Positions 3,050 to 63,553 of a DNA stretch of 64,000 nt are shown one piece after another (within the stretch, counting starts at the first letter, position 1; the number at the start of each line of letters is the position of its first letter). The DNA is taken from positions 1,226,615 through 1,290,614 of the forward strand of contig OZ242004.1 in NCBI GenBank assembly GCA_965204685.1. Direction: 5' to 3'. The stretch comes from Dehalococcoidia bacterium (GTDB lineage: Bacteria > Chloroflexota > Dehalococcoidia > Lucifugimonadales > UBA3495). The notes below the pieces were generated by a model, which saw only the letters and a list, made by a program, of their open reading frames with translations, did not search any database and had not been told where the DNA came from. A program made the translations under genes and the position numbers.

Positions 3050-3644
3050 CGAGGATCCTGTCCAGCACCGCGTCCAGTCCTTCACCCGTGCGGCAGTTGG
3101 TGAACGCATACGGACGCTCTCCCCGAACGATGTTGAGGTCCCGGCGCATCACGTTCAGGTCCGCGCCCACGTAGGGAGCCAGGTCGGTCTTGTTTACCAC
3201 CAGCAGGTCGGTTTGGGTGATGCCCTGTCCGCGCTTGCGGGGTATCTTGTCTCCGGCCGCCACGTCGATCACGTAGATCTGGAAATCGGCCAGCGCCGGG
3301 CTGAAGGTCAGCGTCAGGTTATCGCCGCCGCTTTCGATCAGGACGATATCCGAGTCGGGATATTTCTCGGTCAACTCCTCCACCGCCAGCAGGTTGAGGC
3401 TGGGGTCCTCACGCACCGCCGCGTGGGGGCAGGCTCCCGTGGCGACGCCGCGGATGCGGCCGGTGTCTAGAACTCCCTCCAGGGTCCGCGTGACGTGATC
3501 CGCGTCCTCCCTGGTGAAGATGTCGTTGGTAATGACCACCGGGCGCCGCCCTCGCGCCAGCAGCATAGGCACCAGTTGTTCGACCAGTGTGGTCTTGCCG
3601 GAGCCCACCGGCCCGCCGACGCCAATTCGGGGAACCTTTCTCAT
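3021..3644 (-). CDS. ureG: urease accessory GTPase UreG
   Basis: P-loop [19 protein letters not shown] and NKTDL motifs. Start is ATG 3644 (MRKVPRIGV). The 128-aa N-terminal extension in track ORF 3021..4028 is low-complexity and overlaps the Uma2 gene. Confidence 0.95.
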
Positions 3645-3702: not shown

Positions 3703-4440
3703 TCAGCTGTCCCGCAATCGTTGCAGTTCCTCCTCAAGCTCTTGAACCCTGGCTTCGGCTTGGAGGCGTGCTGCACGCTCGGCAAGGCGGCCTTCGCGCT
3801 CGGCAAGGCGCCCCTCCCGCTCGGTGTCAAAGGTGGCGATGTGGTCGCCGGTGTTGGGATCATGCCAGCGCAGGGAACCGTCGGTCCAGAGGAGTTCCAG
3901 GCCGAGGACGGCGCTGTGTCCGCTGAGGTTGCCGTCCGGCAGCTCAATGATCTCGATGGGTTCGTATCTTCCGTCCACCAGCCGGTCGCCGGCCAGGCGG
4001 GAGCCGTGGTACTGTCCGGTTTCGTCAAAACGCCAGTATTCGGCGATACCGAGAGCCGCGTAGGCAGCGCGCTTTTCGCCGGTGTCGGCGCGGCCGGTGG
4101 AGCGGGAAGCGATTTCCAGCACGAAGTCGGGCGGTTTACCCTGTTCGGATATCACGTACCCGTTGTGTTCCTCAAAAGCGATCGGATCGACGTTGAAGGC
4201 TACCAGGAGGTCGGGGTAGAGGACGCCGGTCATGTCGGCTCTTTCTGATGTGGGCACGAGGGTGATGTATCGTTCGGTGGTTACGATGGTAGTCTGTGGG
4301 TTGCCGAGGTGGAGGGCCAGGTGGTGGGCGTGCCCGGTGTCGGTCAACTGTTTGGCGGCGGTCATCTTCTCGTCCGGAGATTTGGGAGGGTCCGGGAGCC
4401 GGAAGGTGGGAGGAGATTTCGGCGATTTGGCGGTGGTCAT
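3703..4440 (-). CDS. Uma2 (DUF820) family putative endonuclease with C-terminal coiled coil
   Basis: Core [36 protein letters not shown] matches the Uma2/restriction-endonuclease-like fold pattern. C-terminus is [23 protein letters not shown]..., encoded by a tandem ~21-nt DNA repeat. Confidence 0.8.
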
Positions 4441-5253: not shown

Positions 5254-6972
5254 CTACACCAGAAAGTGCAACTGCGCCAAGCTCAGGCGTTCCGCCGCCG
5301 GCACGGTGGCGATCTCGCCGTCCACGCGCACCGTGTAGGTGTCCGGGTCGACCTCGATCACCGGCATTCCGTCGTTGTGCACCATCTGCCGCTTGGTGAT
5401 GGCGCGGCAATTGCGCACCGGCTCCACTCGCCGGGTCAGCCCCAGGTCGCGGTGAACTCCCGCGTCGTAGGCCGCCTGGGACACGAAGGTCAGCGCCGTA
5501 TTCGCCAACGCCTTGCCCATGTTGCCGAACATGGGGCGATAGAAGGACGGTTCGGCGGTGGGTATGGACCCGTTGGGGTCGCCCATGACCGCCCAGCAGA
5601 TCATCCCGCCTTTGATGATCATCTTGGGCTTCGCGCCGAAGCTTCCCAGCGGCCAAAGCACGATGTCGGCCAGCTTGCCAGGCTCCAGCGACCCCACCAG
5701 GTGCGATATGCCGTGGGTAATGGCCGGGTTGATGGTCAGCTTGGCCAGGTAGCGCAGGACGCGGAAGTTGTCGTGGTCCGGCGAGTCCTCGGGCAGCTTG
5801 CCCTTGAACTGCCGCATCTTGTCGGCAGTCTGGAACAGGCGGGTAAAGTTCTCGCCCACCCGCCCCATCGCCTGCGAGTCCGAGGCGTACATGCTGATGA
5901 CGCCCAGGTCGTGGAGCACATCCTCCGCGGCCATGGTCTCCGGCCGGATGCGGCTCTCGGCAAAGGCCACGTCCTCGGGCACCCGCGGGCTGAGGTGGTG
6001 GCACACCATCAGCATGTCCATGTGCTCGGTGAGCGTGTTGACGGTGTACGGCCGCGTCGGGTTGGTGGATGAGGGCAGCACGTTCGGTTCCGACGCGATG
6101 CGGATGATGTCCGGCGCGTGGCCGCCGCCGGCGCCCTCGGTGTGGTAGGTGTGGATCGCCCGCCCGCCGATGGCGGCGATGGTGTCCTCCACGAACCCCG
6201 CCTCGTTCAGCGTGTCCGTGTGGATCGCCACCGGGATGTCGAACCGGTCGGCCACGGCCAGGCAGCAGTCGATGGCCGCCGGCGTGGTGCCCCAGTCCTC
6301 GTGGAGCTTGAGGCCGCTGGCCCCGGCCGCGATCTGCTCCTCCAGGGGAGCCGGGTCGCTGGCGTTGCCTTTGCCCAGCAGGCCCCAGTTGACCGGCAGC
6401 GGCTCGGCGGCCTCCAGCATCCGCGCGATGTTCCACGGGCCCGGCGTGCAGGTGGTGGCGTTGGTGCCGTCGGCCGGCCCGGTGCCCCCGCCGATCATGG
6501 TGGTGATGCCGTTGGACAGCGCGTGGTACACCTGCTGCGGCGCGATCATGTGGATGTGCGCGTCGACCCCGCCGGGAGTGGCGATCAGGTGCTCGCCGGC
6601 GATAACCTCGGTGCCCGGCCCCACCACCAGGTCGGGATGCACGCCGTCCATGACGTTGGGATTGCCGGACTTGCCCACCGCTACGATGTGCCCGTGGCGC
6701 ACGCCGATATCGGCCTTGATGACTCCCATCATCGGGTCCATGATGATGGTGTTGGTGATGACCAAATCCAGCGCGCCGTTGCGGTTGGTCGTCTCCGACG
6801 CCTGACCCATGCCGTCCCGGGCTGACTTGCCCCCGCCGAAGACCAGTTCGTCGCCGTGGGTGAGCAGGTCGCGCTCGATCTGGCAGACCAGGGACGTGTC
6901 GGCCAGGCGGAACCGGTCTCCCACGGTGGGGCCGTAGAGGTCCACGTATTGCCGGCGGCTGATTCGGGCCAT
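5254..6972 (-). CDS. ureC: urease alpha subunit
   Basis: 572 aa. [26 protein letters not shown]..., HEDWG and MVCHHL motifs. Confidence 0.97.
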
Positions 6973-6976
6973 GTCG

Positions 6977-7381
6977 TTATGCCTCGCTGGTATCTACTGG
7001 GTTCGACGGCTGGTTCAGGAAACCCCGCCTGGAGATTGCTTCGAGGGCCTGGGCGCGCACGACCGGCGAGTCCAGGCTGCCGTCGGTAAGCCCGTTGAGC
7101 CCGCGCACCCGGCGCGAGCCGCCGATGGCCACCAGCGTCACGTCCTTGCGGTCGCCCGGCTCGAAACGCACGGCAGTCCCGGACGGCACGTCCAGCCGCA
7201 TCCCGAAGGCGGCCTCCCGGTCGAACCGCAATGCCCGGTTCACCTCGAAGAAGTGGAAGTGCGAGCCGACCTGTATGGCCCGGTCGCCCGTGTTCCACAC
7301 CGACAGCGTACACGTGGGCCGGCCCGCGTTTATCTCAACCGGTTCGTCAGCGATGATGTAGTGTTCGCTGGGATTGCTCAT
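6977..7381 (-). CDS. ureB: urease beta subunit
   Basis: 134 aa. [19 protein letters not shown] and [17 protein letters not shown] motifs. No obvious Shine-Dalgarno upstream. Confidence 0.95.
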
Positions 7382-7412
7382 AACTGCTTTGACCTGTTTA
7401 TCCGGGGGAGCA

Positions 7413-7517
7413 TCAGAAGCAGGATTTGCCGGATTAGAGGATTATCAGGATTGAATCGGCGGTATCGGGAATACAAAAATCCTGATAATCCCATAATCTT
7501 GTGAATCCTGCTTCTGA
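7413..7517. repeat. nested-palindromic GGATT-rich intergenic element (copy A)
   Basis: Perfect terminal inverted repeat TCAGAAGCAGGATT (7413-7426) / AATCCTGCTTCTGA (7504-7517). Perfect inner inverted repeat ATTATCAGGATT (7441-7452) / AATCCTGATAAT (7478-7489). Confidence 0.9.
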
Positions 7518-7825
7518 CGATTTCCCGTACCAGGGCAATCGCGTCTAAATTGGCCTCCGCAGTGAAGCCGGACCAAACCACAGGCTGTAGCCGCTTTCGA
7601 GGGTCAAAACATACGCCGGTGAGGCTTGTGTTCGCCGCCTTGGAACCCAATCGGATTGAATTGCAGTATCTGGAATACCGCCGACAACAGACAATATCAA
7701 CGCACAGAATGTTTGAGCACGTTGATTATAACGACTACCGCAAGACGCGATTGCCCTGTTTCCCGTACCCGCGGGTTCCGTTTGCTTGCGGTTAGCCTCT
7801 ATGATACCATCCCCGACATTCGGCG

Positions 7826-12914: not shown

Positions 12915-13811
12915 CTACCGTCCCTTGGCCCGCATCAGGCCGGCGGGACGCCATTGCAGGAACAGGATCACCATGGCGAACACCAACACCTTGCCGACCA
13001 CCGCGGTGGTGCCGAACTCCAGCATGGTGTTCAGCATCCCGATGATCAGCGCCGCCAGGATGGTGCCGGGCACCTGCCCCAGCCCGCCCAGGATCACGAC
13101 GATGAAGGCGTCCACCACGTAGAACGTGCCCAGGGACGGCCCGATGGGGCCGATCAGCGTCAGCGCGCACCCGGCGATGCCGGCCAGGCCCGAACCCAGC
13201 GCGAAGGTGAAGCTGTCCACCCGCCGCGTTGATACTCCCAGGCTCGCCGCCATTTCCCGGTTCTGCATCACGCCGCGCATCCGGCGCCCCTCGCTGGAGC
13301 GGTACATGTACCAGTAGAGGCCACCAATGCACGCGGTGACCAGCGCTAGGATGAAGACGCGCTTCACGGGCAATACCAGATCGGTCGTTACCGTGATCGC
13401 GCTGCCCAGCCACGGCGGCGCCACCACCTGCACGTTGGGCGCGCCGAATATCGACCGGGCCAACTGCTGCAGGAACAGGCCCACGCCCCACGTCGCCAGC
13501 AGCGTGTCCAGGGGGCGGCGGTACAGGAAACGGATCAGCGCGTTCTCCACCACGTACCCCGCCGCTCCGGCAATCACGAAGGACGCGGGAATGGCGATCA
13601 GGAACGTGACCCCCGACTGCGGGTCGCCGGTGAAGCTGAGCGCCGCCTGCTGCAATGCGTACGTGGTGTACGCGCCGATCATGATGAACTCGCCGTGGGC
13701 CAGGTTGATGACGTTCATCAACCCGAAGGACAGCGCCAGTCCCAATGCGATCAGCAGCAGGATTGAGCTCAGGCTGAGCCCGTTGAACAGTTGTAGAGCC
13801 CAAACTTCCAT
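12915..13811 (-). CDS. urtB: urea ABC transporter permease UrtB
   Basis: 298-aa LivH-like permease (NLAHGEFIMIGAYT). Confidence 0.9.
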   Translation of the reverse strand: MEVWALQLFNGLSLSSILLLIALGLALSFGLMNVINLAHGEFIMIGAYTTYALQQAALSFTGDPQSGVTFLIAIPASFVIAGAAGYVVENALIRFLYRRPLDTLLATWGVGLFLQQLARSIFGAPNVQVVAPPWLGSAITVTTDLVLPVKRVFILALVTACIGGLYWYMYRSSEGRRMRGVMQNREMAASLGVSTRRVDSFTFALGSGLAGIAGCALTLIGPIGPSLGTFYVVDAFIVVILGGLGQVPGTILAALIIGMLNTMLEFGTTAVVGKVLVFAMVILFLQWRPAGLMRAKGR

Positions 13812-13875
13812 TTCGTGGCCATAAAGGAGTTTGAGGAGGCGGAGGCGCGGACGTCATCCGCGCCTATGGGTTGTT

Positions 13876-13984
13876 GTCAGAAGCAGGATTTTCAGGATTT
13901 CGGATTTCGGGATTGACAGGATTGCGGTCATCCGGTGGCGGAGAAAACCCAATCCTGTCAATCCTTCAATCCGGCTGCTGACAG
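13876..13984. repeat. nested-palindromic GGATT-rich intergenic element (copy B)
   Basis: TGTCAGAAGCAGGATT... ...AATCCGGCTGCTGACA termini. Perfect inner repeat GATTGACAGGATT / AATCCTGTCAATC. Lies between urtA and urtB. Confidence 0.9.
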
Positions 13985-13990
13985 TTGATG

Positions 13991-15295
13991 CTACTGGGCC
14001 AGCTCCCGCAGGCCGGCGGCCCATTCGTAGCTGTCCAGGTAGGGGTCCGGAACCACCGGCGAGCCGGAGTTCCAGATCTCGTCGATCTGCCCGTCGTCGC
14101 GCACCGTGCCGATGCGGACGGTCTTGGACACGTGCTGGTTCTCGTTGTGGATGGTCACCATCCCGCCCGGCGCGGCGAACTGGATGCCCTTGGCGGCTTC
14201 CTTGACCGCGGCCACGTCGGTGGACCCGGCCTTTTCAACGGCGGCCTTCCACAGGTACACGCCGAAGTAACCCGCCTCGATGGGGTCGTCGGTGACGCGG
14301 TTCTCGCCGTACTTGGACTTGAACGCGCTGACGAACTTCACGTTTTCCGGCGTGTCAGTGGTCTGGAAGTAGTTCCACGCCACCAGGTGCCCGGCGATGT
14401 TCTCCGCGCCGATGCCGGTGATCTCTTCCTCGGCCACGCTGACCGAAATCGTGGGCAGTTCCTCGGCAGTGATGCCGGCGTCCTTGAGCTGCTTGAAGAA
14501 GGCCACGTTGGAGTCGCCGTTCAGCGTGTTGAACACCACGTCCGGGTCGGCGGCCTTGATCTTGGTGATGACGGTGCTGTACTCGGTGTGGCCCAGCGGG
14601 GTGTACTCCTCGCCCACGGCCTCGATGCCGGCGGCGGCCAACTGCTTGTTGATGATCAGGTTCGACGTGCGCGGGAACACGTAGTCGGAACCCAGCAGGT
14701 AGAACTTGGTCTTGCCCTCGCCCAGCAGGTACTCGATGGCCGGCACGATCTGCTGGTTGGTGGTCGCGCCCGTGTAGAAGATGTTGGGCGACGTCTCCAG
14801 GCCCTCGTACTGCACCGGATAGAACAGCAGCCCGTTGTTGGCCTCGAAGACCGGCAGCATCGCCTTGCGGCTGGCGCTGGTCCATCCGCCAAAGACCACG
14901 GAAACCTCGTCCTCCTGGAGCAGCTTCCGCGCCTTCTCGGCGAAGGTCGGCCAGTCGGACGCGCCGTCCTCGATGACGATCTCCAACTGCTTGCCCATCA
15001 CGCCGCCGCTGGCGTTGATCTCTTCAATGGCCAGCAGTTCGGCGTCGTGCACCGCGGTCTCGCTGATCGACATCGTGCCGGACAGGGAGTGCAGGATGCC
15101 CACCTTGATGGTGTCGGACTCGGCGGCGGGCGCGCTGGCCGGTTGGGATGCGGCAGCGGGTGCGGCCGTGGCGGCCGGTGCCGGGGGCGGCTCGGAGCCG
15201 CAGGCGGCCAGCATCAGGGGCATGATAACGGCGGCCGCGCCAATGAGCGCGAACCGCAGCAAAGCGGGCAGTTTGGCTAAACCGGTTAGAGACAT
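13991..15295 (-). CDS. urtA: urea ABC transporter substrate-binding lipoprotein UrtA
   Basis: 434 aa. Lipobox LMLAAC-G, then a LivK/amide-urea binding protein-like body. First gene of the urt cluster. Confidence 0.92.
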
Positions 15296-21352: not shown

Positions 21353-21374
21353 GCTCCCGCGAAGTCACTGCAAC

Positions 21375-21449
21375 TGGTGGAGGCTACGGGATTCGAACCC
21401 GTGACCCCCTGCTTGCAAAGCAGGTGCTCTCCCACTGAGCTAAGCCCCC
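21375..21449 (-). tRNA. tRNA-Ala (anticodon UGC), CCA encoded
   Basis: The reverse complement reads GGGGGCTTAGCTCAGTGGGAGAGCACCTGCTTTGCAAGCAGGGGGTCACGGGTTCGAATCCCGTAGCCTCCACCA. It forms a cloverleaf with the G3:U70 Ala identity pair, anticodon loop UU-UGC-AA and a TTCGAAT T-loop. Confidence 0.95.
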
Positions 21450-21533
21450 ACGCCGAGCCCCTATGGACCGGCGGCGGCCGCGTTGACCGCCCTTCCATAC
21501 TACCACCAGCCTGCGTCGGCCGGCCATGCGCGA

Positions 21534-22565
21534 TCACAGGTCGATGATCAGCACCCACATCGGCTCCCGGCCGATGTCGTACACCTCCAGCGGTTCCAGT
21601 TCCCCGCTGTCCTGGTTCACCCGGTAGGACGCCAGCCGGCCCGTATCCAGGCCCGAGGCGTACAGGTAGTTGCCCGTGGTGTCCAGACTAAACGCGCGCG
21701 GCACTGCCTCCGTCGCCACCCGCCCGATGGCGGTCAGGCTGCCGTCGTCCCCGTCCACCGCGAAGCCGGCCACGCTGTTGTGCCCCCGGTTTGGCGCGTA
21801 CAGGAACCGACCCGACGGCGTGATCTGGATCTGCGAGCAGGTGTTGCGCTCGGTGAAATCCTCCGGCAGCGTCGGCACCGTCTGGAATGGCGACAGCGTG
21901 CCCGTGTCCGCGTCGAACCGGTACGCCGTGACGCTGCATCCCTGCTCGTTGGACGAGTACACCACGTCGAGGTTGGGGTTGAAGCAGACGTGCCGCGGCC
22001 CCTCCGGCGACGTGGGGTTGGCCCGGTCCGGCGTGTTGGGGGTCAGTCGGCCCGTTGACTCGTCGAACCGGAACTGGAAGATGGCGTTGGGCCCGGTCTG
22101 TGACCCCTCGGCGATGTGTGGCACGAAGGCGTAGCGGTTGGACGCGTCGGTCTGGATGTAGTGCGCCCCGATGCCGGTCTCCCGCCACTCGATGGGCGTC
22201 GGGTCCAGCCTGCCGTCGTCGCCGAAGCCGTGCACGCCCACCCGCGCCTGGTAGTAGTAGGCCGACAGCAGAAAATTGCCCGTGCGGTCCACCGAGATAT
22301 GCACCGGGTTCCCGCCCAGGTTGATGTCGTTGATCCGCGCCAGGTCGCCGCTGCCGCCGTCAATGCTGAAGGACGTCAGACCGTACTCTCCGGCCCGGCG
22401 CCGCCCCACGAACAGAAAGCGTTTCTCCGGATCCGTCGCCAGCGGCGCCGGCATCCCCGCCAATGGAAACTCCACCCGCTCCGTCAGCCCGCCCGTAGCC
22501 GGATCCAGGTCGTACCGAGCGATGACGTCGTCCCCTTGCAGCGATACGTATAGATAGGTAGCCAT
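21534..22565 (-). CDS. lactonase, 7-bladed beta-propeller family (6-phosphogluconolactonase-like)
   Basis: 343 aa. MATYLYVS..., repeated blade motifs, and ...HVCFNPN.... Confidence 0.85.
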   Translation of the reverse strand: MATYLYVSLQGDDVIARYDLDPATGGLTERVEFPLAGMPAPLATDPEKRFLFVGRRRAGEYGLTSFSIDGGSGDLARINDINLGGNPVHISVDRTGNFLLSAYYYQARVGVHGFGDDGRLDPTPIEWRETGIGAHYIQTDASNRYAFVPHIAEGSQTGPNAIFQFRFDESTGRLTPNTPDRANPTSPEGPRHVCFNPNLDVVYSSNEQGCSVTAYRFDADTGTLSPFQTVPTLPEDFTERNTCSQIQITPSGRFLYAPNRGHNSVAGFAVDGDDGSLTAIGRVATEAVPRAFSLDTTGNYLYASGLDTGRLASYRVNQDSGELEPLEVYDIGREPMWVLIIDL

Positions 22566-22577
22566 GTGACACCTCCG

Positions 22578-23753
22578 CTATTCCATCACCCGCGCGTCCG
22601 GCAGCCCCAGCAGGAACTGCCCGTGGTTCTCGTACGCCGTGTCGCTCACCATCTGGTGCTGGGCCGCCGCGTTGATGTCCCGCAGGCACTGCTGCAGGAT
22701 GTTGGGCGTGAACAGCGCCTCGCCGCCGCCGTAGCGGAAGGCTTGGGCCGTCACGTCCGCGGCCACGTCGGTGGTGTAGGTGGCGCAACTGCGCATCTGT
22801 GCTTGCAAGGGCGGCGGTGGAGTCTGGCCCGCGCATACCGACCGCCACGCCTCTTCCAGTATCTCCACGTTGAGGGAACGCGCCGCGCGCAGCCGCAGGT
22901 CGCACTCGCCCAGCGCCCGCTGGAACGTCGCCCGGTTCGCCAGCAGGTTTACCGAATTGTACCCGCGCGTCTTGGACGCCGCCGCCTCGGTCACGGCGTC
23001 CAGTGCCCGCCGCGCCACGCCCAGGGCGAAGGCCGAGTGCTCGTTGGTCACAAAGGCCGGCCGGCCCAGGCGGTACAACGCGCCGCCCCGGAGCGGCTCG
23101 GTCAGCGTCGAGTCCCACGCGAACCCGTTGGGCACGAAGAGGTCCTCCACCGAAAAGTCGCAGCTTCCGGTGCCGCGCAGGCCCATGACCTGCCAGTTGT
23201 CATGCACCTTCACCTTGTGCTTGGGCATCGCCATCCGCACCTGCCGCGGATAGCCGTCGAGATCGCCGGTCACCCGCGCGCCGGCGGAGACCCAATCCGC
23301 GTGCATAATACCGCTGCCGAACCTCCAGTGCCCGTTGACCCGGTAGCCACCTTCCACCGGCGTCGCGGTCGCGGAAGGCGCGGCCGCTCCCGCCGTCTTG
23401 GGCGGCCGTCCGCCCACGAAAATCTCCTCGATTGATTCGTCCGGCAGGAACGCGGCCAGGCTGCCCACGCTGGCCGCTCCGATCATCAGGCACCAGCCCG
23501 AGGCCGGATCGATGCAGCTCACCGCCTCTAGCACGTCCAGCTGCGTCACCACGTCGGCCTCGGCGCCGCCCAGCACGTGGGGCATCTTGAGACGCAACAA
23601 CCCCGACTCGTAAAGCGCATCCACCGATGCCGGCGCCAGCGTGCCAATCTGCTCCGACTCCTCCGCCCCCGCCTCCAGCGTAGCCCGCACGCTCTCCACC
23701 GCGTCCATCAGGATGCGATGCTTCTCCTTTCGATCAAAAGGAAACCCGTTCAT
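22578..23753 (-). CDS. acyl-CoA dehydrogenase family protein (type-2; possibly a flavin-dependent monooxygenase component)
   Basis: 391 aa with ACAD middle and C-terminal domain patterns (GGYRVNGHWRFGSG; WQVMGLRGTGS). Confidence 0.85.
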   Translation of the reverse strand: MNGFPFDRKEKHRILMDAVESVRATLEAGAEESEQIGTLAPASVDALYESGLLRLKMPHVLGGAEADVVTQLDVLEAVSCIDPASGWCLMIGAASVGSLAAFLPDESIEEIFVGGRPPKTAGAAAPSATATPVEGGYRVNGHWRFGSGIMHADWVSAGARVTGDLDGYPRQVRMAMPKHKVKVHDNWQVMGLRGTGSCDFSVEDLFVPNGFAWDSTLTEPLRGGALYRLGRPAFVTNEHSAFALGVARRALDAVTEAAASKTRGYNSVNLLANRATFQRALGECDLRLRAARSLNVEILEEAWRSVCAGQTPPPPLQAQMRSCATYTTDVAADVTAQAFRYGGGEALFTPNILQQCLRDINAAAQHQMVSDTAYENHGQFLLGLPDARVME

Positions 23754-32419: not shown

Positions 32420-33925
32420 ATGGCGGTAAGGCAACCCACTGTTGAAGAGATTTTCCGCATCGCCGACGCCTACAACCTGAACCCCTCGCCGGCCGACGTC
32501 GAGTCCTATATCGAGCTGAGCCAGCCCATCCTGGACTCCTACGCCCGGTTGGACCAGCTCACCGCGCCCAACCTGCCGGTCAAGTACCCGCGCTCTCCGG
32601 GCGCGAGACCCCAGCCGGATGACAACCCGCTGGGCGCCTGGTACTGGCGCTGCGACATCACCGGTCCCCAGGGCGGGCTGCTCTCCGGCAAGAGCGTTGC
32701 CATCAAGGACAACGTCTGCGTGGCCGGCGTTCCCATGATGAACGGCACCAGCGTCCTCGAAGGCTACGTCCCCGACGTGGACGCCACCATCGTTACGCGC
32801 ATCCTGGACGCCGGCGGGTCCATCCGGGGCAAGGCGGTCTGCGAGAGCCTGTGTTTCTCCGGCGGCAGCCATACTTCGGACACCGGGCCGGTGCGCAACC
32901 CCCATGACCCTGCGCGCACGGCCGGCGGCTCATCCAGCGGCAGCGCAGCGCTGGTCGCGGCCGGCGAGGTGGACATGGCCATCGGCGGCGACCAGGGCGG
33001 GTCCATCCGGATACCCGCCAGTTGGTGCGGCATATATGGCCTCAAGCCTACCTACGGGCTGGTGCCGTACACCGGGGTCTTCCCCATCGAGCTGACCCTG
33101 GACCACACGGGGCCCATGGCCCGCACCACCGCCGACGTGGCCTTGATGCTGGAAGCCATCGCCGGACCCGACGGCCTGGACCCCAGGCAGAGCGCCGGTC
33201 TGGTCGGCCAGGGCTACACTCAGGCGTTGACCGGCGACGTATCCGGTCTCCGCATTGGCATCGTGCAAGAGGGTTTTGGCCTGCCTGAGTCTGAGGCGGA
33301 CGTGGATGCGGCGGTGGAAAACGCGGCGCGTTCGTTCGAGAGCATGGGCGCTCAGGTGGGCGCCGTTTCCATACCCTGGCACCGGGACGGCATCCACGTC
33401 TGGCGGGCCATCGCCGTGGAGGGCGCCACGATGCTGATGGTGGCCGGCAACAGCATGGGCACCAACTGGAAGGGTCACTACACCACCGGATTGCTGGACG
33501 TGTACGCCCGCGGCTGGCAGACCCGGGCCGACGACCTCTCGGAGACCACCAAGCTGGTGGTGCTCATGGGACAGTACATGCAGGACCGGTACCAGGGCCG
33601 CTACTACGCCAAAGCCCAGAACCTGGCCCGGACGCTCACCGCCGCCTACGACCAGGCGCTCAACGAGTATGACCTGCTGGTGATGCCCACCCTGCCCATG
33701 AAGGCCACGGTCATTCCGCCGGCGGATTGCAGCCGCCAGGAGTACACCGACCGGGCGCTGGAGATGATCCCCAACACCTGCCCCTTCGACGTGACCGGAC
33801 ATCCGGCGATTTCGGTGCCCTGCGGAACATCCGACGGCCTGCCCATCGGCATGATGCTCGTGGGTCGCACGGGCGACGATGCGATGGTCCTGCGCGCCGC
33901 CGACGCCTATGATCGCAGCAATTAG
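32420..33925 (+). CDS. amidase (amidase-signature family)
   Basis: AS signature GGSSSGSAALVAAGEVDMAIGGDQGGSIRIPASWCG. ATG 32420 is preceded by a GGAGG RBS. Confidence 0.9.
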   Translation: MAVRQPTVEEIFRIADAYNLNPSPADVESYIELSQPILDSYARLDQLTAPNLPVKYPRSPGARPQPDDNPLGAWYWRCDITGPQGGLLSGKSVAIKDNVCVAGVPMMNGTSVLEGYVPDVDATIVTRILDAGGSIRGKAVCESLCFSGGSHTSDTGPVRNPHDPARTAGGSSSGSAALVAAGEVDMAIGGDQGGSIRIPASWCGIYGLKPTYGLVPYTGVFPIELTLDHTGPMARTTADVALMLEAIAGPDGLDPRQSAGLVGQGYTQALTGDVSGLRIGIVQEGFGLPESEADVDAAVENAARSFESMGAQVGAVSIPWHRDGIHVWRAIAVEGATMLMVAGNSMGTNWKGHYTTGLLDVYARGWQTRADDLSETTKLVVLMGQYMQDRYQGRYYAKAQNLARTLTAAYDQALNEYDLLVMPTLPMKATVIPPADCSRQEYTDRALEMIPNTCPFDVTGHPAISVPCGTSDGLPIGMMLVGRTGDDAMVLRAADAYDRSN

Positions 33926-33948
33926 CCCGTGACCAACCGGAGGCCAAG

Positions 33949-34782
33949 ATGATAGTAGTAACCGGAGCGGCCGGCAGGCTGGGCCGCCGGGTCGTGCAAC
34001 TGCTGGTGGATCAGGGCCGGGAAGTTCGGGCGACCGACCGGGTGCCGGCCGATGAGCTGCCCGCTGAGTTCGTACGCTGCGAACTGTCGGATGCGGCGGG
34101 TGTGATGGATCTGCTCAGGGGCGCGGACGCTGTCGTGCACATGGGCGCGATCCCCGGTCCGCAGCGAGCCGACCCGAGGGTAATTTTCGAGAACAACGTG
34201 GCTGGCGACTTCAACGTCATGATGGCGGCGGCGGAGTTGGGGCTGCGCCGCGTGGTGTTCTCGTCCAGCGCTTTCGGCATGGGGTGGGCCCACGACGGCA
34301 ACGCTTTCGTCCCGCTCTACCTGCCCCTGGACGAAGAGCATCCCATGATGCCTTTCGAACCCTACGGCTTGACCAAGCAGGTGGGCGAGGACATCGGCCG
34401 GATGATCGCCCGCAACTCGGATACCACCGTGGTCAGCCTCCGTTTCACCAACGTCGCGCTTCCCGAAGTGCAGGCCGAGTTCCCCTGGCCGGCTCCAACG
34501 CCGGAAAACCCGCTGACGCTGGTGATGTGGGCCTACGCGGACGCCAGGGACGTGGCCGAGGCCCACGTGCTGGCGCTGGATGCGCAGATCAAAGAGTACG
34601 AGGCGTTCATGCTCGCTCAACCATCCAGCCGGTTTGCGGAGCCCACCATCGACCTCATCAAGCAGAACTTCGGCGACCGGGTGGAGATACGCGACGGGCT
34701 CGAAGGTACCGCCAGCGTCATCAGCACGGCAAAGGCGCAGCGAATGCTGGGTTGGACACCGCGCCACGACTGGAGGCAATGA
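33949..34782 (+). CDS. NAD-dependent epimerase/dehydratase (extended SDR) family protein
   Basis: MIVVTGAAGRLGRRVV Rossmann motif. 277 aa. Confidence 0.85.
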   Translation: MIVVTGAAGRLGRRVVQLLVDQGREVRATDRVPADELPAEFVRCELSDAAGVMDLLRGADAVVHMGAIPGPQRADPRVIFENNVAGDFNVMMAAAELGLRRVVFSSSAFGMGWAHDGNAFVPLYLPLDEEHPMMPFEPYGLTKQVGEDIGRMIARNSDTTVVSLRFTNVALPEVQAEFPWPAPTPENPLTLVMWAYADARDVAEAHVLALDAQIKEYEAFMLAQPSSRFAEPTIDLIKQNFGDRVEIRDGLEGTASVISTAKAQRMLGWTPRHDWRQ

Positions 34783-34817
34783 ACGGCGTCTGCTCATGCG
34801 ACCCGGTTTCGTAAACC

Positions 34818-34927
34818 GTCAGAAACAGGATTTACAGGATTTTATGATTTGGCAGGATTGGGAACTCTCCATCACGGAACGGTTCCAATCCTGATAATCC
34901 CTGAATCTTGAAAATCCTGCTTCTGAC
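34818..34927. repeat. nested-palindromic GGATT-rich intergenic element (copy C)
   Basis: GTCAGAAACAGGATT ... AATCCTGCTTCTGAC termini, with CAGGATT repeated at ~9-nt spacing. The core GGAACTCTCCATCACGGAACGGTTCC is the reverse complement of the core of copy D. Confidence 0.9.
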
Positions 34928-60104: not shown

Positions 60105-60212
60105 AACACTAACGGAACTTCCCGGTCGTCGCTGCAACAGGCATCTTCCTCCGGGATTGGGGCTTGTGCCGGGTAAGTCTGAATTAGGGCGTTACAATCC
60201 TGGGGGTCATCG

Positions 60213-60665
60213 GTGACATTCGAGGAAGTAGTAAAATATCTGGAAGCGGCCGCCTACATCGCCATCGTACTGGCCGTTCTGGGAGTTCCGCAAATGCTGT
60301 CGAGCTATTTTGACATACGAGACCGTCGCGGCGCGCGGGAGGAAACGGAACGCGTCCGCCAAGCAGAGCGGGAAGAGGCGGAACGCGTTCGCCAGGTGGA
60401 GCGGGAAGAGGCGGAACGCGCTCGCCAAGCAGAGCGGGAGGAAACGGAACGCGTTCGCCTGGCGGAGCGAGCGGAGGCCGAGCGCCGGCATACGGAGATG
60501 ATGACTGCTCTCTTCGCCATCATTGACCGAACCAATAACGGGCGCCGCGACATACCGGCCCGGGACGAGGACGTCAATACGGAGATATTGCGCCGCCTGT
60601 CCGTCATCGAGTCCGCGCTGGGAATTGCGACGGAGCCTGGTGATGACGACGAGCGCGTGGCCTGA
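60213..60665 (+). CDS. N-terminally membrane-anchored coiled-coil protein with 11-aa tandem repeats
   Basis: GTG start. One hydrophobic helix (AAAYIAIVLAVLGV), then REE(T/A)ERVRQ(A/V)E x4. Confidence 0.55.
   Translation: MTFEEVVKYLEAAAYIAIVLAVLGVPQMLSSYFDIRDRRGAREETERVRQAEREEAERVRQVEREEAERARQAEREETERVRLAERAEAERRHTEMMTALFAIIDRTNNGRRDIPARDEDVNTEILRRLSVIESALGIATEPGDDDERVA
60336..60488 (+). repeat. 33-bp in-frame tandem repeat (4 full units plus a partial one)
   Basis: Units start at 60336, 60369, 60402 and 60435 (CGGGA[G/A]GA[A/G][A/G]CGGAACGCG[T/C]NCGCC...GAG), followed by a degenerate partial unit. Confidence 0.9.
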
Positions 60666-61119
60666 CGTGACGGGTCGCCAGAACATCACCGTCAAACTGA
60701 TCGAAACGCCCGCCGAGCTCGAGGGCGCGTTCAGCCTGCGCATCCGCGTCTTCGTGGGCGAGCAGGGCGTCCCCGCTGACATCGAGCTGGACGAATTTGA
60801 TACCGCCGACGACACCGTCCACGCCGTGGCCCTGCATGACGGGGTCATCATCGGCACCGGCCGGCTCCTGCCGGACGTGGACGGCAAGGGGCCGCACATC
60901 GGGCGCATGGCGGTGGAACAGGACAGACGGCGCGCCGGCGTCGGCGGGTTGGTGCTGACCTTCCTGGAGGATCAGGGCCGCGCCCGGGGCTTCCGGCAGA
61001 TCACCCTCCACGCCCAGGAGTATGTCAAGTCCTTCTACGCCGGCCACGGCTACCGGGAGGTCGGCGACATCTTTGAGGAAGCCGGCATCCCCCACCGGGA
61101 AATGGTCAAGGAACTATAG
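60643..61119 (+). CDS. GNAT family N-acetyltransferase
   Basis: IGRMAVEQDRRRAGVGGLVLTFLE (acetyl-CoA binding motif A: R/Q-x-x-G-x-G/A). 158 aa. Confidence 0.88.
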   Translation: MTTSAWPDVTGRQNITVKLIETPAELEGAFSLRIRVFVGEQGVPADIELDEFDTADDTVHAVALHDGVIIGTGRLLPDVDGKGPHIGRMAVEQDRRRAGVGGLVLTFLEDQGRARGFRQITLHAQEYVKSFYAGHGYREVGDIFEEAGIPHREMVKEL

Positions 61120-62042: not shown

Positions 62043-62131
62043 TTTTACCGGGATGCACAGGATACAGGAGATAGACAGGATGATTTGTTGTTATCCCGTT
62101 CATCCGGCTCATCCTGTGCATCCCGGTAAAA
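62043..62131. repeat. CAGGAT-rich palindromic intergenic element (variant family, copy F)
   Basis: Perfect 21-bp terminal inverted repeat TTTTACCGGGATGCACAGGAT (62043-62063) / ATCCTGTGCATCCCGGTAAAA (62111-62131). Confidence 0.9.
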
Positions 62132-63225: not shown

Positions 63226-63331
63226 AAGGGTTAACTCCGTGCTTGGTATGGCGTAAGGCAATGTAGCACGCGCCTACAACACCGGCAACACGGATACGTA
63301 CTGATGCGTACTCGGTTTGCGGCGGGGAAAT

Positions 63332-63441
63332 GTCAGAATCAGGATTTTCAAGATTTGGGGATTATCAGGATTGGAACCGTTCCGTGATGGATCTCTCTCA
63401 ATCCTGTCAAATCATAAAATCCCGCAAATCCTGATTCTGAC
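63332..63441. repeat. nested-palindromic GGATT-rich intergenic element (copy D, inverted relative to copy C)
   Basis: Perfect 15-bp termini GTCAGAATCAGGATT / AATCCTGATTCTGAC. The core GGAACCGTTCCGTGATGGA matches the reverse complement of the copy C core. Confidence 0.9.
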
Positions 63442-63553
63442 GATTCGTGCAAGTGGGAACCCCCCGAGCAGTGAGCCAGTTTGACGCCCGCCCCCGGCCG
63501 GCGTAGCATTACTTTTATCCAACCTGCTGTTTCCAGATACCCGGGAGGCGCTG

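Follow-up and report, generated by a model that had tools for sequence, protein, structure and literature searches.

Between the genes for the binding protein and the permease of a urea transporter, a Dehalococcoidia bacterium carries a palindrome of 107 nt, one of four similar elements in the stretch of 64,000 nucleotides that was analysed (hereafter, the window). Where do such elements come from, how are they spread, and does the copy in the urt operon act on the transcript in which it lies? The original prediction, made from the sequence of the window, described a family of four nested palindromes, and all four were confirmed in their places with small shifts at the edges. Copy A (7412-7518, 107 nt) is a naked GGATT hairpin in the ureB-ureA spacer, where it is part of a 1.08-kb pile-up of insertions. 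Copy B (13876-13982, 107 nt), likewise a naked GGATT hairpin, has five GATT units on the left and three AATC units on the right; its start had been placed exactly, and its end is at 13982 instead of the predicted 13984, the right terminus being degenerate. Copy C (34818-34927, 110 nt) is a GGATT hairpin with two minus-strand neighbours, an amidase gene and a 291-aa ORF, and the hairpin of copy D (63332-63441) lies between an unassigned ORF and the gene for an enolase-superfamily dehydratase. All four copies are in spacers of co-directional minus-strand genes.

The 15-nt terminal motif that the copies were said to share was borne out: it has nine matches in the window with up to three mismatches (1.03 expected; none of 100 shuffles reached nine), one of which (13750-13764) is outside the four copies. 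An nhmmer profile of 88 arms, all from other genomes with the window arms left out, found the eight window arms at E values of 1e-15 to 9e-6 and no further match in the window at E <= 1, and the window has exactly four copies, that is, eight arms. As predicted, the arms are built of tandem GGATT units, with three to five GATT cores at a spacing of 7 to 10 nt in inverted orientation, and the two arms abut a loop of 24-30 nt to make a palindrome of 107-110 bp. The G+C content of the elements is about 42-51%, against 64% for the window. Each copy folds as a long hairpin, as had been proposed, and does so on either strand (-53 to -66 kcal/mol, z-scores of -5.8 to -9.7); there was no strand bias in the folding, the transcribed strand being no better than the other. 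Copies C and D are 89% complementary over 115 nt, and thus represent the same element in the opposite orientations that were claimed for them. The window copies share their terminal inverted repeats, small size and lack of an ORF with classical MITEs, and no Rfam family matched any of them at gathering scores. One of the spurious ORFs attributed to the elements, 13831..14205, is present in the ORF list.

The arms are homologous across bacterial phyla and not private to the source genome. In a one-genome-per-species collection, at least 117 stretches carry the exact arm pattern, a sequence of 45-50 bp that starts with (A/T)T(T/C)GTC(A/T)GAA-CAGGATT and continues with three to five GGATT units; the pattern was found in at least eight phyla. 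Among the matches listed were 50 loci in 28 Chloroflexota assemblies (mostly sponge-type Dehalococcoidia), 32 loci in 23 Bacteroidota assemblies, 21 loci in 18 Poribacteria assemblies and five Cyanobacteriota loci, the others being from Gammaproteobacteria (Thiotrichaceae), Desulfobacterota, a Planctomycetaceae MAG (Planctomycetota) and a Chlorobiaceae MAG (Chlorobiota). Nearly all of the matches listed are preceded by (T)TGTC(T/A)GAA. The arm sequence was not found in any paper of the literature searched.

The element is high-copy in sponge metagenomes. In four of these, the depth of copy C, taken as summed contig depth, was 10 to 60 times that of its flanks, and many contigs diverge at exactly 34818 and 34927, leaving loose ends that fix the limits of the repeat unit. 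Furthermore, presence or absence of the element varies between related genomes. At ureB-ureA, the places that correspond to 7381 and 8464 are separated by only 24 nt in relatives (runs X4 and X6); the window has 1.08 kb there, including copy A. In the loci L005 and L014 the GGATT hairpin is swapped for CGTC-type repeats or a gene-bearing insert, and L101 has GGATT elements where the window has a second palindrome family (62043-62131). Genuine CGTC-type repeats are found in L010 and L014 as elements in their own right.

Which gene accompanies the arms was surveyed by clustering the ORFs within 3.5 kb of 91 solo arms, together with small ORFs beside any arm. The sole recurrent ORF family next to the arms listed was GxxExxY, a protein of about 125 aa carried beside arms in a Bacteroidetes MAG, an Ilyomonas MAG, Microcystis and a Thiotrichaceae MAG. 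Identity among these proteins is 70-75% across three phyla, and they match TIGR04256 ('GxxExxY') and PF13366 (PDDEXK_3). No transposase recurred within 3.5 kb of the 91 solo arms, beside any arm, or between paired arms. A nine-member cluster of neighbouring ORFs was rejected as spurious ORFs that read through the repeat, and distant arm pairs were rejected as autonomous copies, the genes between them (a nitronate monooxygenase gene in L010, an unassigned ORF in L109) not being cargo.

The association was evident in 80 metagenomic loci that encode the GxxExxY subfamily. Close to the gene, within 350 nt, the density of unit arrays is 16 times that of the more distant sequence. A profile of 96 arms from loci of the Dehalococcoidia group, eight of them from the window, gave 189 matches (E <= 0.01) in 70 of the 80 loci (88%) and none in shuffled copies. 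In 45 loci (56%), an arm in plus orientation lies upstream and one in minus orientation downstream of the gene, each within 150 nt. The arms of the 17 bracketed loci that were read out are 436-658 nt apart, and both start with (A/T)TTGTCTGAATCAG(G/A)ATT; a GAATT-unit variant of the arm exists beside the GGATT one. The full cassette, of about 450-550 bp, consists of the gene for a GxxExxY/PDDEXK_3 nuclease of about 125 aa between two inverted arms of 45-50 bp. In a plasmid collection there was a single GxxExxY match, in Persicobacter, where an AATCC array is arranged differently.

In 50 sequences, neither D69, E79 and K81 nor the residues that make up the GxxExxY motif vary, a pattern that fits the active site of a PD-(D/E)XK nuclease. 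The closest folds to the AlphaFold (AF2) model of the protein (pLDDT 93.3) are Cas4 SSO0001 and nucleases of the RecB/lambda-exonuclease type, the resemblance being modest (E 3e-4, TM about 0.55), and a sequence search of the PDB gave no relative. We know of no activity for any GxxExxY protein, nor, to our knowledge, is a PD-(D/E)XK nuclease alone known to carry out transposition. In the only classification that was found, PF13366 is entered as 'unknown' and is credited with multiple transfers between divisions (PMC3424549). A GxxExxY inverted-repeat cassette family was not found in the literature searched, in which 'GxxExxY' is named only in passing; as mobile DNA, the nuclease cassette is apparently undescribed.

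The window elements have the ends of the cassette family, (A/T)T(T/C)GTC(A/T)GAA followed by CAG(G/A)ATT, and the same unit grammar, and have only a loop of 24-30 nt in place of the gene. They are thus probably ORF-less miniature forms of the nuclease cassette, derivatives of its family and not full members of it. No GxxExxY gene was found by tblastn in the window, in about 60 Chloroflexota loci or in 21 Poribacteria loci (about 0.7 Mb); the homology of the arms is the single thread that would connect the source genome with GxxExxY.

In many Dehalococcoidia copies, including copy D of the window, the hairpin is enclosed by an outer inverted repeat, CTCAYGCGTACCCRGTTT, of a carrier MITE. The carrier has 18-bp terminal inverted repeats, and the composites are uniform at 166-168 bp; the same outer ends also enclose unrelated interiors, with a length of 136-137 bp. 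In relatives the carrier makes 9-bp duplications (for example, AGGCGGCGG in L096 and CGCGCGAAT in L003). Furthermore, a filled site can be compared with an empty one. The window has the empty target site CTCCGCTATTC at 22573-22583, in a 12-nt spacer between two minus-strand genes, and the locus L080, which is 88.8% identical to the window at 21372-23550, has a composite inserted there with CTCCGCTATTC repeated on both sides. Through the duplicated sequence, the upstream gene regains its stop codon, and the downstream gene its GGAG ribosome site.

Copy D had been described as the hairpin at 63332-63441, which is present; it is truly a composite of 168 bp (63301-63468), with the extra outer inverted repeat at 63301-63331 and 63442-63468. 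The ends of this composite are degenerate, as if worn, and no duplication is left at its flanks. Copy C has only the left outer arm of the carrier (34793-34817, CTCATGCGACCCGGTTTCGTAAACC), the right one being missing, and the CAT of this arm is the predicted ATG of the ORF 33922..34797. Neither copy A nor copy B has outer arms, both being naked hairpins. Empty sites for copies C and D were not found among the relatives; in L101, the sequence beyond the shared gene departs into a 16S rRNA gene. In sponge metagenomes, most contigs that leave the hairpin run on into the outer arm, and thus the composite is the commonest form there. The GGATT hairpin of copy D, and partly that of copy C, is therefore cargo in an ordinary MITE and not the MITE's own end. 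Carried inside an element with 18-bp terminal inverted repeats and 9-bp target-site duplications, the hairpin can spread without an enzyme of its own. The original prediction had held that copies flanked by duplications and associated with a transposase would be ordinary MITEs, and this situation did arise for copy D, and partly for copy C, as cargo of a kind of MITE that makes 9-bp duplications. IS4-family DDE_Tnp_1 genes occur in related genomes, and a parent IS with the same ends was not found among the at least 117 arm loci and the 80 GxxExxY loci.

At the ends of the hairpins and cassettes themselves, no direct repeats above shuffled controls were found in 31 hairpins or in 33 gene-bearing cassettes. 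The flanks tend to AATT on both sides; the deviations from AATT are uncorrelated between the two sides of a copy, which points away from a duplication and towards either longer ends or a preferred target sequence. The absence of a duplication argues against a staggered-cut DDE mechanism. Thus, the claim that no target-site duplication is visible holds for the hairpin boundaries and does not extend to the composites, around which relatives show 9-bp duplications; the accompanying claim, that no transposase is visible, was upheld, as no DDE transposase lies beside the elements. The elements are wedged in short spacers between co-directional genes.

Copy B occupies such a spacer in the urt operon. 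It lies between the stop codon of urtA (13991..15295, minus strand; TIGR03407, 596 bits, 1.7e-179), encoding the substrate-binding protein of the urea ABC transporter, and the start of urtB (12915..13811, minus strand; TIGR03409, 387 bits, 4.7e-116), encoding the permease, and is transcribed on the minus strand; the profile matches on either side establish the predicted position. The junction has a second, GC-rich stem-loop at 13844..13864 (minus strand, GGCGCGGACGTCATCCGCGCC), which is the shortened counterpart of a 12-19-bp stem next to urtB that is conserved in all relatives. Loci L118-L124, with UrtA 95-97% identical to that of the window, have the orthologous copy B insertion with the same loop. 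In L125, L126, L208 and L209 (UrtA 90-94% identical in those read), copy B is absent, and mutually unrelated GC-rich stem-loops are present there. The window UrtA itself has no exact match on record. No promoter-like or terminator-like site was found at the junction, and the element is without a terminator tail.

Transcripts of the operon were sought in eight metatranscriptome runs (X25-X32), as assembled contigs only, from strains 90-97% identical to the window. RNA contigs run through copy B in X28, X26 and X32, and contigs from urtA reach 65 nt into it in X29 and X31; copy B is thus co-transcribed within the urt operon. The urtA signal was stronger than that of urtB in six of the eight runs, with no drop in X27 and X32. 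The depth of urtA was 2-4 times that of urtB in X25, X26 and X28, by contig depth, a flat and weak measure, and more than 3-10 times in X29-X31, again by contig depth, with contigs that break at repeats. Such a step would be expected of an intercistronic barrier or of a processing site, and an RNA role of the element is plausible. Copy B has the attributes of an intercistronic hairpin, namely a stable stem-loop, the position between binding protein and permease, co-transcription and no terminator tail. However, the flatness of contig depth, the contig breaks at repeats, the second hairpin and the lack of strand bias in folding weaken this role, and the opposite orientations of copies C and D within same-strand operons count against it. 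Since the native GC hairpin is still at the junction, copy B is not needed to explain the drop. The original prediction of an mRNA stabilisation like that of malE-malF thus gained from the position, the co-transcription and the excess of urtA over urtB in six of eight runs; the stabilising effect itself did not gain, in view of the flat depth, the second hairpin and the absence of a strand bias. By analogy with Correia elements and rRNA intervening sequences, the stem of about 45 bp would be a natural substrate of RNase III.

Taken as a whole, we consider the four elements to be non-coding miniature copies of a widespread selfish element with a GxxExxY nuclease, and assign a probability of about 0.7 to this reading. 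The small nuclease would recognise the unit arrays, probably on an extruded hairpin or on single-stranded DNA, and would cut near the GTC(A/T)GAA ends, in analogy to RAYT with REP and Ssn with NTS. Copies without the gene would be moved in trans, or they may be relics. When transcribed, the element would form a stem of about 45 bp, and copy B, if it acts at all, would most likely be a structure for intercistronic processing or 3' protection, to the advantage of urtA over urtBC. A further-reaching version can be put forward tentatively, as a conjecture that we would not call probable. According to this version, the GGATT/GAATT cassettes would be an undescribed class of mobile element whose sole protein, a minimal Cas4-like GxxExxY nuclease, reads unit arrays on the extruded hairpin and brings about intergenic insertion without duplication; the window palindromes would be non-autonomous members that hitch-hike in MITEs in sponge symbionts, and their RNA stems would uncouple cistrons, as at urtA-urtB.

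The elements could instead be ordinary MITEs, whose GGATT arms are the multi-site ends of an unseen IS with a DDE transposase that moves the hairpins in trans. Sub-terminal iterated motifs are carried by the ends of IS21, Tn7 and Mu-type elements, and long terminal inverted repeats with such motifs are what the arms are; a true MITE, of the kind with 9-bp duplications, does enclose copy D and many relatives, and IS4-family DDE_Tnp_1 genes are present in related genomes. Nevertheless, the boundaries of 31 hairpins and 33 cassettes lack a duplication, no transposase recurs near the 91 solo arms (3.5 kb), beside arms or between paired arms, and the gene that does lie between arms is that of the 125-aa nuclease, so that we regard this origin as quite unlikely. 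A REP/REPIN-like repeat moved by a RAYT transposase of the IS200 type (Y1) is very unlikely, although the elements are palindromic, intergenic, free of duplications and mostly between co-directional genes, and although the YGTC(A/T) at their ends resembles the CGTC/TGTC tag by which one REP super-family is marked (PMC3733652). They have 107-110 nt, paired ends and sub-repeats, whereas REPs have 20-40 nt (PMC3733652); genuine CGTC-type repeats occur separately in related loci, and the bracketed gene encodes a PD-(D/E)XK protein and not a Y1 enzyme.

Another possibility, which we also judge unlikely, is a host regulatory element that is kept for its RNA hairpin, as a stabilising or processing structure of the transcript, or for a DNA array that binds a regulator. 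The location of all four copies in spacers of minus-strand operons could be so explained, as could the retention of the urt copy at 95-97% UrtA identity, its replacement of the unrelated stem-loops seen at 90-94%, its co-transcription, and the stronger urtA signal in six of eight RNA runs. However, the same arms stand beside unrelated genes in at least eight phyla, neighbouring genomes have different elements at the same spacers, either orientation occurs, folding is without strand bias, the copy number is high, and the junction still has its native GC hairpin. Readings of the CAGGATT units as CsrA-type sites, DnaA boxes, Fur boxes or regulator arrays were dropped because the arms bracket a nuclease gene and adjoin unrelated genes.

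The reading as miniature copies of a nuclease element connects an anonymous palindrome from a sponge symbiont with an element that spans phyla and has a candidate enzyme. For PF13366/TIGR04256, a very large family, it provides a testable proposal, namely a nuclease that is specific for a sequence or a structure and has a defined DNA substrate. The spurious ORFs, split operons and contig breaks that recur as a nuisance in the annotation of Dehalococcoidia and Poribacteria MAGs are explained as well. The window newly contributes three things: the form that lacks the gene, which abounds in sponge Dehalococcoidia and Poribacteria with no nuclease gene linked to it; the nesting of this form in a MITE that makes 9-bp duplications; and transcript evidence from an operon junction. 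The composites are a natural example of nested mobile elements, and the urtA-urtB junction is one at which unrelated hairpins replace one another.

The position of copy B can be compared with that of the REP/BIME hairpin between malE and malF of Escherichia coli, the effect of which Newbury et al. (1987) reportedly showed by deletion analysis. In both cases a stable stem-loop follows the binding-protein gene and precedes a permease gene of an ABC transporter operon, and the upstream message is the more abundant. The evidence for mal comes from deletion analysis and that for urt from weak contig depth; moreover, the urt stem of about 45 bp would have the length of an RNase III substrate and would not act only as a block to exonucleases. 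Some intervening sequences of 23S rRNA genes bear an ORF, a small selfish one in the loop of the stem. They resemble the present elements in that a long stem of inverted repeats, transcribed in host RNA, holds such an ORF, or none, in its loop, whereas the elements here are in the spacers of protein operons, any excision from RNA being hypothetical for them.

Among bacterial MITEs, Chunjie of Geobacter uraniireducens and the Correia elements of Neisseria are inserted in operons, and Correia elements are co-transcribed and cut by RNase III (PMC10969869). The carrier family with copy D, with its 18-bp terminal inverted repeats, 9-bp duplications and length of 166-168 bp, agrees with classical MITEs, and the insertion in L080, in a 12-nt operon spacer with the operon left undisturbed, is similar to that of Chunjie (PMC10969869). 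The GGATT hairpin differs from classical MITEs in having no duplication and no known DDE parent, and in being cargo in a MITE.

REPs are defined as imperfect palindromes of 20-40 nt in which the stem has 5-13 bp and the GTAG or CGTC tag is unpaired (PMC3733652), and the window elements fall outside this definition. The original prediction that they are REP/BIME-like rather than MITEs is therefore apt for their behaviour, as dispersed palindromes without duplicated ends and without a DDE neighbour, and not for their membership, in view of the length of 105-110 nt, the sub-repeats, and a PD-(D/E)XK gene where a RAYT would be expected. As with REP/REPIN and RAYT, dispersed extragenic palindromes without target duplication are transcribed and are found chiefly between co-directional or convergent genes, and the presumed mobilising enzyme is encoded by a small gene that has the same repeats on its flanks. 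Unlike them, the arms have 45-50 bp with three to five GGATT units behind GTC(A/T)GAA, in place of 20-40-nt hairpins with a GTAG or CGTC tag, and the enzyme would be a minimal PD-(D/E)XK nuclease in place of an HUH/Y1 transposase.

The arrangement of repeat, small single-domain nuclease gene and repeat is shared with NTS/dRS3 (SRM) and Ssn (PMC11893778). Of the Ssn GIY-YIG genes, 42% are flanked by repeats on both sides and 71% by at least one (PMC11893778), and the association is of comparable strength for GxxExxY (56% and 88%). A massive expansion of gene-less repeats, a wide phyletic spread and an HGTCW-like start are also common to both. The nuclease fold differs, Ssn being single-strand GIY-YIG nucleases, and the long arrays here stand against single hairpins of 20-50 nt; of the Ssn motif (HGTCWY, a stem of 8-9 bp, a loop of 4-5 nt, a CCA-like tail and a cd10448 GIY-YIG neighbour), only the HGTCW start is found in the window elements (PMC11893778, PMC3733652). 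By analogy, the duplication-free ends would fit a relationship of the type of REP-RAYT or NTS-Ssn, with an enzymology deduced from those systems (PMC3733652, PMC11893778). If this is true, the GxxExxY nuclease would represent a third enzymatic route to the expansion of REP-like repeats, beside RAYT and Ssn.

A related Dehalococcoidia genome (locus L080) and the window present the filled and the empty state of one site. In the former, a composite element of 162 bp, that is, a GGATT hairpin inside the carrier MITE, lies at 6859-7020 in a spacer of 12 nt that separates a flavin monooxygenase-like gene from a 6-phosphogluconolactonase-like gene, whereas the corresponding site of the window (22573-22583) is empty. 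In the filled site, the duplicated sequence remakes the stop codon of the flavin monooxygenase-like gene as well as the ribosome site of the 6-phosphogluconolactonase-like gene. Three relatives (L208 1-509, L213 1-453 and L215 1-619) have genes for IS4-family (DDE_Tnp_1) transposases a short way upstream of urtA, and these are candidate movers of the carrier MITE with its 9-bp duplications. In the window, an ORF without a family match (33922..34797) takes its predicted ATG (34795-34797) from the carrier MITE, at the CTCATG end; the start of this ORF was either mis-called or created by the insertion of the MITE.

Copy B, at the urtA-urtB junction, has asymmetric arms in the window (5 units vs 3). 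In both DNA and RNA contigs, relatives lack 7 nt at window position 13895 and are longer by 9 nt, corresponding to one AATCC unit, after 13967/13975; therefore, the number of units in the arms varies by whole repeats. The arms are also arranged in head-to-tail arrays in other genomes (L029 2619-3015, L055 4024-4403 and L073 4278-4449): a Cytophagales MAG has eight units of 52 nt, and a Dehalococcoidia MAG has units of 139-174 nt, each composed of an arm and a GC-rich segment.

In one Dehalococcoidia genome, a 130-aa ORF for a retropepsin-like aspartyl protease (PF13650) is located between GGATT arms (L001 2636-3224), and a paralogue adjoins it. The Dolichospermum plasmid pAfl69, which has six arm matches, carries an element of roughly 340 bp with such arms (L127 6001-6340), placed directly against the start codon of a DEAD/DEAH helicase gene of 1,791 aa (CAT|TGTCTGAATCAGG).

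The Rfam match to 5_ureB_sRNA (62 bits, window 6524-6819) falls within the urease gene region and probably represents conserved urease coding sequence rather than a small RNA. Four 33-nt tandem repeats are present at 60335-60499, in a region open on both strands (ORFs 60213..60665 on the plus and 60207..60908 on the minus strand).

A second palindrome family, built of CAGGAT(G/A) units and with ends unlike those of the GGATT elements, is present at 62043-62131 of the window, and in an 88%-identical genome the same spacer holds one and a half GGATT elements (L101 221-365). The CGTC-type REP hairpins (CGTCATTCCCGCGAA(A/G)GCGGGAATCCAG) observed in related Dehalococcoidia genomes (L010, about 4300-4340; L014, about 3400-3600) are a repeat family distinct from the GGATT elements, and are of the type recognised by the Ssn nucleases.
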